A DNA stretch of 32,000 nt from Candidatus Hermodarchaeota archaeon (GTDB taxonomy: Archaea; Asgardarchaeota; Heimdallarchaeia; Hodarchaeales; Hodarchaeaceae), in contig JBHLKY010000005.1 in assembly GCA_048886185.1 (NCBI GenBank), positions 86,901 through 118,900 of the forward strand. The letters are read 5' to 3'. Below the pieces are notes generated by a model, which was not told where the DNA came from, made no database searches, and was given only the letters and a program-made list of their open reading frames with translations. The first letter of the stretch is position 1. Every line of letters begins with the position of its first letter. Made by a program: the position numbers and the translations under genes. Below are positions 20,757-27,164 of the stretch, in pieces.

Positions 20757-21002
20757 TTAAGAACCACCGCCAACAGGTGGAAAAATCGCAACTACATCTT
20801 CTCCATTCAGCTTCTCTTGTAATTCTTGAATATTCCCATTAATCATTATTATTTTTGCTTGATCTTCGGAAATCTTAAGTTTCCTTAATAATGTAGCAAC
20901 GTTGGCGTCTTCTTCGAGAGTGACAGGGAAACTGTCGCCTAATTTGATATCAATTGGCCCGTATTTTCTAAGAGTAGCAAATAATTTTACCATTACAATC
21001 AT
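20757..21002 (-). CDS. moaD: MoaD/ThiS family sulfur-carrier (ubiquitin-like) protein
   Basis: VKLFATLR N-terminus, IMING, EDVVAIFPPVGGG, followed by one extra Ser before TAA. Confidence 0.88.
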   Translation of the reverse strand: MIVMVKLFATLRKYGPIDIKLGDSFPVTLEEDANVATLLRKLKISEDQAKIIMINGNIQELQEKLNGEDVVAIFPPVGGGS

Positions 21003-21017
21003 TTGAGTAAATTTCCT

Positions 21018-21350
21018 TTAATAATAATCGCTTTCATTTTTAGGTCTTTTTGTTATAAATCCATGACCTTTAAGATGTTGGCCCCCACATAAAAGGTACA
21101 TACCCGTTGGAAATAACCCAATTCGTGCTCCTTTTGGTATAATTGAATTTGGATTAGAAATGCTTCCATTGCTAAAAATCTCTCCACATTCATTTAACTT
21201 AATATCAAGACGATCTAATAGCTGAAATATTTTCTCTCCCTCAATGTACGGAAGCCAGAGGATCGTATCCTCTGCGAATGAAGCATTTGGGTCAATCTTT
21301 TTTTTTAATGAACCATATAAGTGAATCTCAATCATTATTATACGACTCAA
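21018..21350 (-). CDS. MoaD/ThiS-like beta-grasp protein with C-terminal extension
   Basis: IEIHLYGSLKK, FQLLDRLDI, IFSNG, ARIGLFP match the ThiS/MoaD pattern; then GMYLLCGGQHLKGHG.... Start may be ATG 21335. Confidence 0.7.
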   Translation of the reverse strand: MSRIIMIEIHLYGSLKKKIDPNASFAEDTILWLPYIEGEKIFQLLDRLDIKLNECGEIFSNGSISNPNSIIPKGARIGLFPTGMYLLCGGQHLKGHGFITKRPKNESDYY

Positions 21351-21477: not shown

Positions 21478-21705
21478 TCATTCAGATTCGTCGATATCAT
21501 CCATTGAAGGAAATTCGAAAAGATCAGGCTCAAGATCGAAAAGACCGATCTCGAATTTGTCTATGAATAGGTCTATGATAGCTTGGCGAACTATATCTTC
21601 TCTTGAGGAATAGTAACCACGTTCAATAAGCAGATCCATGTACTCTACTAAACTAGTAGCAATGTTTGTGGATAATTTTACAGTCTTAGACTCATTATTT
21701 TCCAA
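21478..21705 (-). CDS. Ribbon-helix-helix (CopG/Arc/MetJ) transcriptional regulator with acidic tail
   Basis: VKLSTNI strand, SLVEYMDLLIERGYYSSREDIVRQAI helices; GAGGT RBS before the TTG start. Confidence 0.85.
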   Translation of the reverse strand: MENNESKTVKLSTNIATSLVEYMDLLIERGYYSSREDIVRQAIIDLFIDKFEIGLFDLEPDLFEFPSMDDIDESE

Positions 21706-21918: not shown

Positions 21919-22542
21919 TTAGGAATATAACTTTATTAAGGTAAACTCTTCTCCATAGGCTTTTACAATTTGACCAGATGAATTTCGGAACTGATGATAG
22001 AGAAGAGCTTCATATCCTAATGGAGATATCGAAAACTTTTCTTCAGAGTCAACTTCAATCTGCTTCAGAATCTTTAGTAACACTTTAACGAATATTTCTT
22101 TCTCAGATACATTCAATTCGATTGATTCACTCGTTCCACTTTTAATATACCAAAATTTGATTGTTATTGATACTCCTTCTTCAGATATTTTACTAGGTGA
22201 AATCTCTGACAATAATGTTTCTAATATGCTTAATGTAAAAGTATCGTCTCGATCTCTAGGCGTCTCACCAGAAATGGCAATTTTACTTGATACTTCAGTT
22301 TCCCTAATAGTAGGTGCAACCTCTATTTGTTCTTCTAATAGGTCTGAGCAATGCCGTAACAACGAGGTAGTGGAAATTGACATCTCTTCTAATGCCTTAA
22401 GTATTCCAATAATTGTCGGATTTGTTATAAGGGAACTTAATCGAGCATAAGCTTGGGTTGAAATGCTTTCATGTTTTCGAATTTCATTGAGCATTTCAGA
22501 AAAATTTTGGGTAGTTTCAAGCTCTTTCAATCGTTCAAGCAT
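21919..22542 (-). CDS. Hypothetical protein: N-terminal helical region + C-terminal UFM1/ubiquitin-like beta-grasp domain
   Basis: Residues 124-207 align by eye with eukaryotic UFM1 (see findings). The ORF itself is secure; the domain call is inference. Confidence 0.6.
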   Translation of the reverse strand: MLERLKELETTQNFSEMLNEIRKHESISTQAYARLSSLITNPTIIGILKALEEMSISTTSLLRHCSDLLEEQIEVAPTIRETEVSSKIAISGETPRDRDDTFTLSILETLLSEISPSKISEEGVSITIKFWYIKSGTSESIELNVSEKEIFVKVLLKILKQIEVDSEEKFSISPLGYEALLYHQFRNSSGQIVKAYGEEFTLIKLYS

Positions 22543-22699: not shown

Positions 22700-24463
22700 A
22701 TGAATCAGATATCCTCCAAGAATAATGATCTTGATACTGAACTTCTTAATAAAATACCAGCTGGAATAGTTATCTTAGATAGGAATGATAATCAACCTGT
22801 TTTCGCGAACAGAAAAATCAGAGATGATTTGAAACTACAAGATGAACAAGAATTGAGTAAAGAACTCTTCCTCGATTTTCTAGCTCCTTCAGAAAGGCAG
22901 AGATTCATTGAAATTTCTCGTTCTGAAATTCAACCTGGAATAAGTGAATGGAAAAGCCTTACACTAACAGGAAAAGAAACATGGACTCAACTAAGAGTGG
23001 CTCCGATAAGTGAAAAATATTTATTAGTTATTGTCAGAAATATTGGTAAGATTCAGGAAATTTTAGAAGAATTAAATGTAATAGAGGCTAAATATCAAGC
23101 TCTAGTTGAACGAGATCCTAATTTTTTATTCATCTTAAAAAATGGTGTTTTTGAGTATTATAACAAAGCCTTCATTAACAAATTAGGCTACAGTAAAGAT
23201 GAAATCGAGAAACATAGAAGTATGCCAACTTTCTTTGTAGCTCCAGATGATCGTGAGAAAATCGCAAGATTTTTGTTAAAGAGTAAAAGAGATTTAATTA
23301 CTGGAGTCATTCCAAGAGAGAAAGACAATTTTAAGAGATATAACCAACCTGATGAAACTACAGAATTTAACTTAATGCGCCAAGATGGTTCTTATATTCC
23401 TGTCCATGCTATTGTAAAACGGGTATATTCTGGAAAGGATATATTTATTCAGGGTGTCCTAATTGATTTATCCTCAATAAAAGAGTTACAAGACATGAAG
23501 TTGGATTTTTTAGCAATGACTCAACATCAATTTCGGTCACCCCTTCTAAATTTAAAAGGTTATTTAGACTTTTACAAGAAAAGAGTTAAGGATGGAATTA
23601 GTACAGAGGAAAAAGAAGCACTAGGAACGAAACTTATTGAAATATTTGGTCGAAATGTTAACCAATTAGTTTCTATAACTAAAGACCTCAATGATGTAGC
23701 TCTAATACAACGGGAGAAATTCAAGTGTAATCTACGGGGAGAAAACTTTAATCCGATTTTGCAGCAAGTTATTGAGGATTTAGAGTTTTTAATACGGAAT
23801 TATCGCATTGATCTTATCGTAAAATATCCATCTAATCCCTGTATTGTCAATCTTGATAGAGACCGTATTTCACAAGCACTAAGTAATGTTTTAGAAAATG
23901 CTATCAGATTTACTGGCCATGGGATTATTGAAATAGATGTCACTGTTGAGAAAGATGGACAATTCTTGAAAGTTACCGTAATTGACAATGGAGTAGGGAT
24001 TGATTCTACAAATCTTGAGAATATAGGGAAACCTTTTATGACATTTCATCCCTCAGCAAGTCGTTTGGGATTAGGTCTTTATCTTACTCAAGAGATCATT
24101 AATGCTCATGGTGGATCTTTCCATATAACATCTCCAGGTTTCAATCAGGGAACAAGTGTAACGATTAAGTTACCTCTTTTGGTTCCGCTCGATAAGGATG
24201 TTATATCTCTTCATTCAATGACAGAAAGTTCATTAAACCAAATAATCAGAATAGCTAAAACATCTGAAAATATGTTAAAAAGACTGGAAGCTGTACATCA
24301 ATTAGGAAATGGCACTTATAGCGATATTGAACTAGAAGACGTCATTTCCGCTTTAGAACAAGTTATTTTATATGATAGAGATCGAACTATTAGAAATCTA
24401 GCAGGGAAGTTCTATTCACAGATAGTTGAAAAGAAAGAGAATGCGATATCAGATGCATCTTAA
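22700..24463 (+). CDS. Cytoplasmic PAS-PAS sensor histidine kinase with C-terminal HEAT-like extension
   Basis: Two PAS starts (IPAGIVILD...VFAN; DPNFLFIL...YYNKAF..LGYS), H-box HQFRSPL, N-box NVLENAIRFT, DNGVGI, GLGLYL; no TM segment. Confidence 0.92.
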   Translation: MNQISSKNNDLDTELLNKIPAGIVILDRNDNQPVFANRKIRDDLKLQDEQELSKELFLDFLAPSERQRFIEISRSEIQPGISEWKSLTLTGKETWTQLRVAPISEKYLLVIVRNIGKIQEILEELNVIEAKYQALVERDPNFLFILKNGVFEYYNKAFINKLGYSKDEIEKHRSMPTFFVAPDDREKIARFLLKSKRDLITGVIPREKDNFKRYNQPDETTEFNLMRQDGSYIPVHAIVKRVYSGKDIFIQGVLIDLSSIKELQDMKLDFLAMTQHQFRSPLLNLKGYLDFYKKRVKDGISTEEKEALGTKLIEIFGRNVNQLVSITKDLNDVALIQREKFKCNLRGENFNPILQQVIEDLEFLIRNYRIDLIVKYPSNPCIVNLDRDRISQALSNVLENAIRFTGHGIIEIDVTVEKDGQFLKVTVIDNGVGIDSTNLENIGKPFMTFHPSASRLGLGLYLTQEIINAHGGSFHITSPGFNQGTSVTIKLPLLVPLDKDVISLHSMTESSLNQIIRIAKTSENMLKRLEAVHQLGNGTYSDIELEDVISALEQVILYDRDRTIRNLAGKFYSQIVEKKENAISDAS

Positions 24464-27164
24464 TGTTCTTCTGCCCTTTATTCAAGAAAAGCCTCCAATG
24501 TCAATAATCCCCGCGTTACCAATTAAAGTGCAAATTCGCATTATTAGAGAGGTAATTCAATCGTTAGAGAACTCTAACTACCATAAACGAAATTTTTATT
24601 TTGATATATTTTCCCAGATAAGAGATGGAGGGCTTATTGATTTCCTTACTCAGAATGGGGAGAATTTAGCAGATAATTATTGGAAATATAAGAGAATTGG
24701 CTTTTTCTATTATCCCAGGTTAGTTATTAATGAATTATTTACCAAAAAGGACTCCTTAACAATCTTAATAGCAATCAGAAATGCCCTGAATTCAGATTCT
24801 ATAGACTGGATCTGTTTAATTTGCCAAAAATCTACCTTTATCTTTACATTATCAATGAATGACTTTTTACTTTGGTCTCCTATCATTAAAGGCCTAGTAT
24901 CGTACTTTTTAGTTTCGATATTTATTGATAGCTCTGTTTTAGAAGCATTTGATGATACTGAGAGGCGGACTCTTCTAGAAAAAGAAAAATCATGCTTGCT
25001 TAGGTTCATGAAGCACTGGTTTAGAAAAAACACATCTATAGTAAAAAATAAGGATCAATTTGTTGAGCAATTTTTTTTGCAAATGTTTACCTTTTTATAT
25101 GTTCAGGAAGAGTTGTTAGACAATCTAAATGATCAATTGATCTCTTTTCCTAACATCGACAATCCTAATGATATTGAAAAAATCAATTCTCATATTTTAA
25201 CAATTTTTAATAAACAAGATAAACGTTTCACACATAATTCCTTTTTGGAACCTTCTGAAAATTTCATCTACTCAAGTATTGTGGGTAATTTTACCTTAGC
25301 AGATAAAACATGGATTCTAGATATTCATCCCCTCATTTTTCTGGAAATTATCCCACAGATGAAAAATAAATCAGGTTTACAAAAATCTGGAGAATATTAT
25401 ACACCAATTACATTAGCTGAAACTATAGTGTTCCGTACATTTGAGGCTTTTTTACTACAAGATCAAAAAATCCCCTTAAATAGCCTAAAAGTATTTGATC
25501 CAGCCATTGGAGCTGGTATTCTTTTGATATTTTCCCTAGAACGGCTAAGTAACCTTATTTTATCAAGATCCTATTCAGAAAGCTCTTTTATCGATTTAAG
25601 AAGAAAAATTCTTCAATCATGCATTTATGGTCAAGACATTAACCAAGATACAATCAAAATCTGTAGTTATTTCTTAAAATTATTCTGTATATACGATATA
25701 GACAATGATAAAGTATTAGAGAATTTAAATCGAGTAGATTTCTTTGAATCGTTTGTTAAAAACATAGAATTCAATAAAACATTTCCGAAATATGATATTA
25801 TACTTTCAAATCCACCATATCTTGCATTACATAGTCGTTTCACTAGAAAATTTCCCTCTTCAAAAGAATTAAAGATTATTAGGGATAATTTGCCCGTATT
25901 CAGTGGGAAAAGGGATAATACTTATTTAATCTTTCTTGGAATCTGCTTAAAGCATTATTTAACCTTATATGGAGTGTTAGGATTTGTAATTGATCATTCT
26001 TTTTTAGATCTACCTTCTTATAGAAATATTCGTAAATATCTTCTTCAGAATTACCATTTAAGTTATATTTTGGCGTACTATAATTATAAGAAGACAGCAG
26101 TTGTTGATTTAGCCCTTATAATAATTAATCATATTAGAACTAAAAAACAAACTTTATGGCAAGAATCTTTAAAAGACAAGTCAAGATTAATACCACAGAA
26201 TTTCTTTTTTTCACATCCTAACTTCATCTTCAAATACCAAGAAACATTCTTTTTTCTTCCTCACCTTAATAAGAAAACTGTGCCCCTCGGAGAATTAGCA
26301 TCTATTAGCTGTGGTTTAGAATATGGTGGTTTACTTAAAACTCATTTCTTGGCTTCAAAAAGAGAGAAAGGATTTTATAAGTGCATAGATGGGTCAAATG
26401 GTTTACCACAACCGTACATTCTTTTTTGGGTACCTGAACAGCAAAATTCATACGTTAGATTTGATAAAATGTATGAGAAAAACCTTCAGGATACAAATCA
26501 AAATGTTTCACAAACAGGAAAAAAAGTTATTATGATTTCAGGAAATTTAAATCGATTTTTAACGAATAAAATTATATTAAGACAAACAGCCTCCAAATTT
26601 ATTGGAACTATTGACGAAAAAAAGTATTTGACACTAAGAAACACTCATTTGATTTATGATCCCAAACCACCTTATTCTCTTTATTTTATTTTAGGTATTT
26701 TAAACTCCTTTTTGGGAAATTTAATTGGTGAACAGCAAAATATAATCCGAAAACCTCGAAGAAAGTCTAGTCGCTATCCTCAAATTCGATTAAATGATTT
26801 ATGTAAATTTCCAATTATAGATCTGAATAAATTAGATAATAAATTATTGGTCGAACAGCTTGAAAACGCAACAAAAGAATGTTTGAAGATAGGAAAATCA
26901 ATTACAGAAATCTTAACTAATTTTTGGGATATATTTCATGAATTAGGAATAGTATTCAAATCTCAACGACAATTTCTAAGAATATGTCTGAATAAAAATG
27001 ATTTTGCGCGAATTATACCAGGATTTCATTTGAATAAAGTAAAAATATGGGAATCAATTCTTCAAAAAGAAATTAGAAGGTTATCAGTTCAAAAAAAGGA
27101 AATAGATTCCATTGTTTTTTCGTTATACGGTATTCCACAGCAGGATCGCGGGCTAATAGAGTGA
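24453..27164 (+). CDS. N6-adenine DNA methyltransferase, gamma class (Eco57I/TaqI-like) with C-terminal target-recognition domain
   Basis: GEYYTP (motif X), FDPAIGAG (motif I), NPPY (motif IV), KIILRQT...ILGILNS TRD pattern, EIDSIVFSLYG. Start set at ATG 24453, which overlaps the kinase stop. Confidence 0.88.
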   Translation: MHLNVLLPFIQEKPPMSIIPALPIKVQIRIIREVIQSLENSNYHKRNFYFDIFSQIRDGGLIDFLTQNGENLADNYWKYKRIGFFYYPRLVINELFTKKDSLTILIAIRNALNSDSIDWICLICQKSTFIFTLSMNDFLLWSPIIKGLVSYFLVSIFIDSSVLEAFDDTERRTLLEKEKSCLLRFMKHWFRKNTSIVKNKDQFVEQFFLQMFTFLYVQEELLDNLNDQLISFPNIDNPNDIEKINSHILTIFNKQDKRFTHNSFLEPSENFIYSSIVGNFTLADKTWILDIHPLIFLEIIPQMKNKSGLQKSGEYYTPITLAETIVFRTFEAFLLQDQKIPLNSLKVFDPAIGAGILLIFSLERLSNLILSRSYSESSFIDLRRKILQSCIYGQDINQDTIKICSYFLKLFCIYDIDNDKVLENLNRVDFFESFVKNIEFNKTFPKYDIILSNPPYLALHSRFTRKFPSSKELKIIRDNLPVFSGKRDNTYLIFLGICLKHYLTLYGVLGFVIDHSFLDLPSYRNIRKYLLQNYHLSYILAYYNYKKTAVVDLALIIINHIRTKKQTLWQESLKDKSRLIPQNFFFSHPNFIFKYQETFFFLPHLNKKTVPLGELASISCGLEYGGLLKTHFLASKREKGFYKCIDGSNGLPQPYILFWVPEQQNSYVRFDKMYEKNLQDTNQNVSQTGKKVIMISGNLNRFLTNKIILRQTASKFIGTIDEKKYLTLRNTHLIYDPKPPYSLYFILGILNSFLGNLIGEQQNIIRKPRRKSSRYPQIRLNDLCKFPIIDLNKLDNKLLVEQLENATKECLKIGKSITEILTNFWDIFHELGIVFKSQRQFLRICLNKNDFARIIPGFHLNKVKIWESILQKEIRRLSVQKKEIDSIVFSLYGIPQQDRGLIE

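Follow-up and report, generated by a model that had tools for sequence, protein, structure and literature searches.

A tail-less Ufm1-like beta-grasp domain linked to a predicted helical hairpin in a conserved protein family of Hodarchaeales-type Heimdallarchaeia

We analysed a window of 32,000 nucleotides from Candidatus Hermodarchaeota archaeon (GenBank assembly GCA_048886185.1, contig JBHLKY010000005.1, forward-strand positions 86,901 to 118,900; GTDB order Hodarchaeales) and found that an intact minus-strand open reading frame (ORF) at window positions 21919-22542 encodes a 207-aa protein, plus stop, whose C-terminal part is predicted to be a Ufm1-like beta-grasp domain lacking the glycine tail by which UFM1-type modifiers are attached. 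The predicted fold and the homology to Ufm1-type domains are held with high confidence, and the combined statement, that this is a tail-less Ufm1-like domain protein acting as a docking module, appears reasonably probable. UFM1 was long held to be specific to eukaryotes, and an Asgard origin has been proposed only recently. The gene and the parts of its product, with the predicted local distance difference test (pLDDT) where a model region is concerned, are as follows.

21919..22542, minus strand: whole gene, 207 aa plus stop; member of a conserved single-copy family of ~207 aa in Hodarchaeales-type Heimdallarchaeia
22327..22542, minus strand: N-terminal helical hairpin, residues 1-72, with helices at 2-10, 14-38 and 42-71; pLDDT ~90
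22249..22326, minus strand: linker, residues 73-98, with many Ser, Thr and acidic positions; pLDDT <50
22180..22248, minus strand: residues 99-121, a conserved stretch that extends the beta-grasp on its N-terminal side, with D99 and the invariant F102, from alignment and model
21922..22179, minus strand: Ufm1-like beta-grasp domain, residues 122-207, from fold searches, hhalign and controls

Structure prediction and conservation rest on a 27-sequence alignment of the family. From this alignment AlphaFold2 produced a model with a pLDDT of 78, in which a hairpin (residues 1-72) is joined through a disordered linker to a C-terminal beta-grasp (residues 122-207); a first-pass annotation, made by a model from the sequence alone, had likewise read a helical N-terminus fused to a ubiquitin-fold domain. 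Prediction from the single sequence reached a pLDDT of 37.6 and gave an unusable model. The beta-grasp comprises strands 125-134 and 137-146, helix 151-161, strand 169-173, helices within 178-196 and strand 199-205, and in the model the chain ends two residues past the last strand. The preceding extension forms a short strand (101-103) and a helix (104-113), with a pLDDT of 87 for residues 101-110, and the linker is variable in sequence except for an invariant R96-x-R98 motif at its end. The family alignment is strongly conserved (mean column identity 64%), with K6, Y32, G46, R96, R98, F102, W131, F170-S171-x-S-P174-L175-G176, Y196 and T201 invariant across the family; the conserved positions of the hairpin are K6, Y32, G46, S55, L61-L62-R63 and C65.

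Among solved structures, the beta-grasp nearest to the predicted domain was UFM1. The best eight beta-grasp matches of a Foldseek search against the PDB were all UFM1 (5xda, 5ia8, 6h77, 7w3n, 8bzr, 5hkh and 5l95), with target template modelling (TM) scores of 0.70-0.81, root-mean-square deviations (rmsd) of 2.4-3.0 in most and identities of 16-21%, and they ranked before Caldiarchaeum ubiquitin, FAT10 and SUMO. A shape search of the ESM Atlas similarly returned a Ufm1 cluster with a TM score of 0.70 over residues 122-207. The comparison with UFM1 and other beta-grasps proposed in the first-pass annotation yielded a predicted beta-grasp with UFM1 as its nearest neighbour, and the lead of UFM1, judged from the model by fold alone, is consistent but modest. 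A wide structure search (VIA) was swamped by the helical hairpin and returned generic hairpins only, and a language-model atlas search with the domain and one Asgard modifier gave only mixed or unnamed beta-grasp clusters with scores of at most 0.90.

When superposed on eukaryotic UFM1 (PDB 5xda, 5hkh, 6h77, 8bzr and 5ia7), the domain aligned over its full length as the same beta-grasp, with 74-80 of ~80 residues matched at an rmsd of 2.2-2.8 and an identity of 18-23%. F151 on helix 1 corresponds to F29 of UFM1, and a G-x-E-x3-I end is common to both. The first-pass annotation had matched two strings of this protein to two fragments of human UFM1. Both strings were located in the ORF: LNVSEKEIFVKVLLKILKQIEV spans residues 143-164 (window 22051-22116) and SSGQIVKAYGEEFTLI spans residues 188-203 (window 21934-21981). 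The first of these fragments is letter-exact and equals residues 21-42 of the PDB UFM1 chains, and the second starts at residue 62 (TAGNVFLKHG, residues 62-71). The offsets implied by the two motifs, 122 and 126, coincide with the register of the independent structural superposition, in which model residues 123..204 lie on residues 1..78 of 6h77_Q. The motif match exceeds chance, because UFM1 chains top the fold search and the domain profile scores far above shuffled controls against the profile of Asgard modifiers described below.

The Hodarchaeales domain differs from UFM1 in lacking the C-terminal Gly tail, in forming the end of a 207-aa protein where UFM1 is a free protein of ~85 aa, and in having two helices between strand 3 and the last strand of the model; it is also missed by the Pfam Ufm1 family PF03671, and the search of its own genome gave no UFC1 or UfSP match. 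Membership in the UBX domain family was considered separately. The UBX protein compared (PDB 2dzk), of the class that binds p97/Cdc48, has an identity of 8% to the domain; no UBX Pfam match was obtained, and the loop between strands 3 and 4 reads F-S-x-S-P-L-G in the Hodarchaeales domain, in contrast to the FPR motif of UBX. The UBX proteins may thus serve as a mechanistic analogy, not as a family to which the domain belongs.

The evidence for homology came from small modifiers in other Asgard archaea. A profile of the C-terminal domain of the 207-aa family (A3) was searched against six-frame translations of 400 Asgard genomes, and its weak matches in other genomes included an 87-aa protein ending in RGVVG (P0051) and a 272-aa protein (P0052) that carries the same Ufm1-like domain in its first 89 residues, fused to an E2 conjugating enzyme. 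At the P0051 locus a JAB/MPN protease gene lies upstream, and a 165-aa protein (P0054), followed by an EAP30/Vps36-like gene, lies downstream. P0054 matches Pfam UFC1 with an E-value of 8.5e-5, and the E2 part of P0052 matches it with an E-value of 1.4e-5 and 25.2 bits, above the cut-off of 25. A search with P0051 found the modifier in 47 of the 400 genomes, spread over at least 8 GTDB families, and all extracted copies carry an [RQ]GxVG end, which closes the chain, is followed by 1-3 further residues or leads into a fused E2. A Pfam UFC1 match was present in 29 of the 400 genomes, 18 of them passing the cut-off, and in none of 14 control genomes; 26 of the 29 positive genomes also hold the modifier, usually at adjacent coordinates.

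The RGxVG modifiers and their E2 are thus a Ufm1/UFC1-type system, which fits the Ufm1 homologues reported in nine Asgard clades, some of them not full-length or within longer proteins (PMC12962969). The ~88-aa modifiers probably correspond to the Ufm1 iESPs described by Koestlbacher et al. (Nat Microbiol 2026, PMC12962969). Ufm1 homologues in Asgard archaea were published in 2024 (bioRxiv) and 2026; the first-pass annotation had mentioned reports of UFM1-like folds in this group. The compact cluster carried by other Asgard genomes (L038, G014:C94, 795-3987) joins a JAB/MPN protease, an RGVVG modifier, a UFC1-like E2 and an EAP30/Vps36-like ESCRT-II gene, and in several Loki-type genomes modifier and E2 form one fused protein of ~273 aa (L037, 3090-3908).

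We then compared A3 with a 22-sequence alignment of the modifiers (A4) by hhalign, which aligned 76 of 88 columns with a probability of 94.6% and an E-value of 6.8e-8. The score was 43.3, while 60 column-shuffled versions of A4 scored 11.4 ± 2.2 (maximum 17.8) with probabilities of no more than 3.7%. The same profile gave 0.4% against the neighbouring ThiS-like protein (ThiS81), 0.3% against a 110-aa ThiS paralogue (U110) and 0.2% against Heimdallarchaeial ubiquitin. Because the shuffled, ThiS-like and ubiquitin controls all score far lower, the similarity to the Asgard Ufm1-like superfamily, which covers the whole domain, is at the level of sequence profiles specific and not a general beta-grasp resemblance. 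Both families are confined to Asgard archaea. The modifiers differ in keeping the Gly tail, in adjoining or being fused to UFC1-type E2s and in their distribution, being found in many Asgard families and in none of the 21 genomes of the GTDB genus of the window. Of the 22 members of A4, only 3 match PF03671, at E-values of 0.037 or worse; the word-seeded search with the A4 profile gave 53 clusters, all Asgard and with no eukaryotic UFM1 among them, and its profile search of PDB sequences did not find UFM1. A phylogeny, as proposed in the first-pass annotation, was computed from the domain and the Asgard modifiers; it separated the two into clean clades (100/100), with an uninformative point of attachment.

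Another Asgard lineage holds a protein of comparable build:

L039 4387-4992 (G309:C102), minus strand: P0053, 202 aa, with a tail-less C-terminal Ufm1-like domain

P0053 is matched by both profile A3 (E 3.1e-5) and the P0051 query (E 3.2e-7) and also lacks the Gly tail; its N-terminus and gene neighbourhood are unrelated to those of the 207-aa family. This pairing of a tail-less domain with an unrelated N-terminus suggests that built-in Ufm1-like domains without a tail have more than one origin or a wide distribution.

The 207-aa protein itself has no family match in Pfam or NCBIfam. Among 5.8 billion proteins, a word-seeded search gave 44 homologous clusters of ~203-248 aa, aligned over their full length, and all named members were metagenome-assembled genome (MAG) proteins of Heimdallarchaeota, Hodarchaeales or 'Promethearchaeota', annotated as hypothetical. 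When 1.8 billion representatives at 50% identity were searched exhaustively with phmmer, only 7 matched, down to 30% identity. In the six-frame search, A3 matched 19 of the 21 genomes of the genus and the genome of the window itself, always as a single copy and, in the genus, in frames of 208-233 aa; outside the genus its matches were weak. With 20 of 22 genomes positive in all, the family is nearly exclusive to this Hodarchaeales-type genus.

The C-terminus of the protein reads ...TLIKLYS, as had been noted in the first-pass annotation, with no Gly in the last 10 residues. A conserved C-terminal Gly motif was present in 0 of the 27 aligned members, whose final residue varies among S, T, A, K, G, I, N, E, R and M, and the exposed glycine (...VG) used in adenylation by an E1 activating enzyme is thus absent. 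The domain is cut off right after its last strand and would therefore be neither adenylated by an E1 nor conjugated, and a protein that cannot be conjugated most likely acts non-covalently. The first-pass proposal of a non-conjugatable UFM1-like domain in a multidomain protein is in this way largely supported by the fold, the homology and the missing tail, with an interaction role as the part that we infer. A short motif at the end of the linker was also noted: the invariant R-x-R-D, residues 96-100 (window 22243-22257, minus strand), reads P-R-D-R-D-D in this protein, and the C-terminal tail of human UFM1 also has P-R-D-R. The likeness is probably a coincidence, because the Asgard modifiers carry D-R-G-x-V-G instead.

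In the genus, neither the RGxVG modifier (P0051 query) nor UFC1 (Pfam query) was found in any of the 21 genomes, and neither was found in the window's own genome, which is 96% complete. The search for UBA5- and UFC1-like genes suggested in the first-pass annotation gave, in the own genome, five ThiF-type E1-like genes in four clusters and no UFC1. A Peptidase_C78 search gave no match in the own genome and also none in any control. The own genome further encodes ubiquitin, several UQ_con E2s and two proteins with weak winged-helix matches to E3_UFM1_ligase (UFL1-type).

Among these, a ubiquitin-type cluster (G000:C8:10436-16100; L009, L004) holds an E2, a 109-aa Rad60-SLD/ubiquitin-like protein, a ThiF E1 with a hint of a four-helix bundle and a 587-aa protein that weakly matches the winged helix of E3_UFM1_ligase and carries zinc-finger-like motifs at its C-terminal end. 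Elsewhere, a 915-aa protein (C27:34979-38299, L003) has an E3_UFM1_ligase match just above the Pfam cut-off.

That Ufm1 homologues occur in Asgard archaea, some inside longer proteins, is already known (PMC12962969). In the literature we did not find a description of the combination of hairpin and tail-less Ufm1-like domain, of its restriction to one Hodarchaeales-type genus seemingly without modifier and UFC1, or of the conserved neighbourhood of the gene; the published Ufm1 set may contain the 207-aa family. The findings give a fold and a family tie to proteins annotated merely as 'hypothetical protein', and indicate that the Ufm1 fold diversified within Asgard archaea into conjugatable modifiers and tail-less built-in domains, a split that mirrors the one among eukaryotic ubiquitin-like proteins. 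A small, well-conserved protein with fixed neighbours also offers a test case for binding by a Ufm1-like surface in an archaeon apparently without UFC1.

At every locus of the genus that has sufficient flanking sequence, a methyltransferase and a kinase gene lie on one strand, followed divergently by the 207-aa gene, a ribbon-helix-helix (RHH) gene, a ThiS paralogue and a ThiS/MoaD gene. The neighbours in the window are as follows, with locus counts referring to loci with enough flank.

20757..21002, minus strand: 81-aa ThiS/MoaD-family protein (ThiS81) ending in FPPVGGG; Pfam ThiS, E 2e-10; 13 of 13 loci
21018..21350, minus strand: 110-aa ThiS/MoaD paralogue (U110); hhalign 95% against the ThiS-like neighbour; 10 of 13 loci
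21478..21705, minus strand: 75-aa RHH protein; Pfam RHH_8, E 1.9e-6; 13 of 13 loci
22700-24463, plus strand: PAS-PAS-HisKA-HATPase histidine kinase (Pfam); divergently upstream in every family locus with flank
24426-27164, plus strand: N6-adenine DNA methyltransferase of ~900 aa (Pfam N6_Mtase/Eco57I/TaqI_C); overlaps the kinase gene

The kinase and methyltransferase pair (22700..27164, plus strand) is kept divergent from the 207-aa gene throughout the genus. The RHH orthologues are 75-79 aa long and carry, outside the DNA-binding fold, a conserved acidic-aromatic tail, DLEPDLFEF(P), in which P60, D61 and F63 are invariant; from its sequence the tail resembles a short linear motif for binding a partner. 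At the locus of the most distant homologue (L110:3-1532; 33% identity), a methyltransferase gene alone is directly divergent, and a stand-alone receiver-domain gene follows the homologue.

On these grounds we propose a protein of two modules, a long helical hairpin and a C-terminal Ufm1-like beta-grasp, connected by a flexible linker. The hairpin would probably be an oligomerisation or docking stalk that dimerises or holds a second partner. The beta-grasp would be a paralogue that has diverged from the Asgard Ufm1-type modifier (RGxVG end, UFC1-type E2 and JAB protease), and its surface would dock non-covalently onto a partner in the manner of the integral ubiquitin-like (UBL) and UBX domains of eukaryotic adaptors. 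The fixed position of the gene, with the kinase-methyltransferase pair on one side and the RHH regulator and ThiS/SAMP-type carriers on the other, suggests that the protein serves there as a regulator or an adaptor; candidate ligands may be the acidic-aromatic tail of the RHH protein, the E1-like enzymes and the UFL1-like proteins. The adaptor mechanism, drawn by analogy with the eukaryotic proteins, is a tentative one to which we give rather less than an even chance. In a bolder version, which is improbable, the archaeal lineage nearest to eukaryotes would already have put the Ufm1 fold to use as an integral signalling domain that works non-covalently; here the genus would have lost its Ufm1/UFC1 pair, and the tail-less domain on its helical stalk would read a motif resembling the UFM1-interacting motif (UFIM), such as DLEPDLFEF of the RHH protein, and couple the kinase-methyltransferase module to the ThiS/SAMP-type ubiquitin-like operon.

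Several results weigh against the two-module proposal. The Foldseek E-values for UFM1 were marginal, at 1e-3 to 1e-2, and eukaryotic UFM1 was not reached at the sequence level by either Pfam or PDB profile searches: PF03671 matched 0 of the 27 family members even at E-values up to 10, and HMMER searches of PDB sequences with profiles A1 and A2 returned no relevant match. PF03671 likewise had no match in the own genome at E-values up to 1, so that none passes the curated threshold, and over the 400 Asgard genomes it gave weak (E >= 1e-3), partial matches, mostly in unrelated large frames, which were not used. The branch joining the domain and modifier clades is very long (~4.8 changes per site), so the time and place of their split cannot be read from the tree. 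No binding partner for the Ufm1-like domain was identified; the one complex prediction, with the RHH protein, scored 0.00 and gave no verdict, counting neither for nor against binding. Finally, the neighbourhood varies beyond the RHH and ThiS-like genes, with the receiver domain replacing RHH in the most distant homologue.

The constant company of the kinase allows another view, in which the protein is a part of two-component signalling whose hairpin docks on the dimerisation helices of the PAS kinase and whose beta-grasp regulates kinase and methyltransferase. The hairpin does match dimerisation and histidine phosphotransfer (DHp) domains, but these matches are those of generic helical hairpins with common scores, the N-terminal hairpin has an hhalign probability of 0.2% against the neighbouring kinase, and no conserved His is present in it. 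Adjacency within one genus may moreover partly reflect shared ancestry, and we consider this explanation unlikely. The marginal fold scores could also mean a generic beta-grasp of UBX-like or SUMO-like type, with no special tie to Ufm1 and a lead of UFM1 that reflects small differences among similar folds. This is doubtful to a slightly greater degree, given the 94.6% to UFC1-associated modifiers compared with at most 0.4% to ubiquitin and ThiS/MoaD proteins of the same organisms, an identity to UFM1 in structural alignments about twice that to SUMO, ISG15 and UBX, and the missing UBX loop motif and Pfam match.

The RHH gene adjoins the 207-aa gene always in the genus, its highly conserved DLEPDLFEF tail lies outside the DNA-binding fold, and the RHH protein has a weak NCBIfam match to ParD antitoxins (E 0.042). 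The two proteins might then be a toxin-antitoxin-like or anti-repressor pair, in which the tail would bind the domain as UFIM and LC3-interacting region (LIR) motifs bind UFM1 and ATG8. The locus is, however, single-copy, vertically inherited, syntenic and not mobile, the 207-aa protein has no toxin-like fold, and the locus of the most distant homologue lacks an RHH gene, which leaves such a pair a slim prospect. A precursor from which proteolysis frees a conjugatable modifier, as might be imagined from other Asgard Ufm1-like modifiers that are fused to UFC1-like E2s or carry short C-terminal extensions needing processing, is scarcely credible and was already disfavoured, since no conserved Gly or Gly-Gly lies near the C-terminus, the chain stops within the exit of the last strand, cleavage at the nearest mostly conserved glycine, G197, would destroy the fold because it precedes the last strand, and neither UFC1 nor UfSP was detected in the own genome (the UfSP family, Peptidase_C78, being silent in controls too).

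Beyond the tail-less Ufm1-like domain, the two ThiS-type neighbours showed features of their own. The 207-aa protein is not a member of this family, given hhalign probabilities of 0.4% against ThiS81 and 0.3% against U110 and the missing GG end. The orthologues of ThiS81 are 80-95 aa long, with tails of 0-20 residues after FPPVGGG that differ among them (none, S, F, TSI, VKK, VGTYT or longer), a pattern that, as read from the sequences, is that of ubiquitin-like and SAMP precursors needing trimming. The intergenic spacers are shorter among divergent members, down to 46-101 nt, which is compatible with an operon, and the position of a nearby aldehyde:ferredoxin oxidoreductase gene is not conserved. 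The U110 orthologues are 105-115 aa long, and past the fold they carry a stretch, LLCGGQHLKGHGFITK, that is strictly conserved in 10 of the 10 orthologues seen. The tail after the GG is thus under selection and not a throw-away propeptide, and LLCGGQHLKGHGFITK is a possible Cys/His site for a metal or a persulfide.
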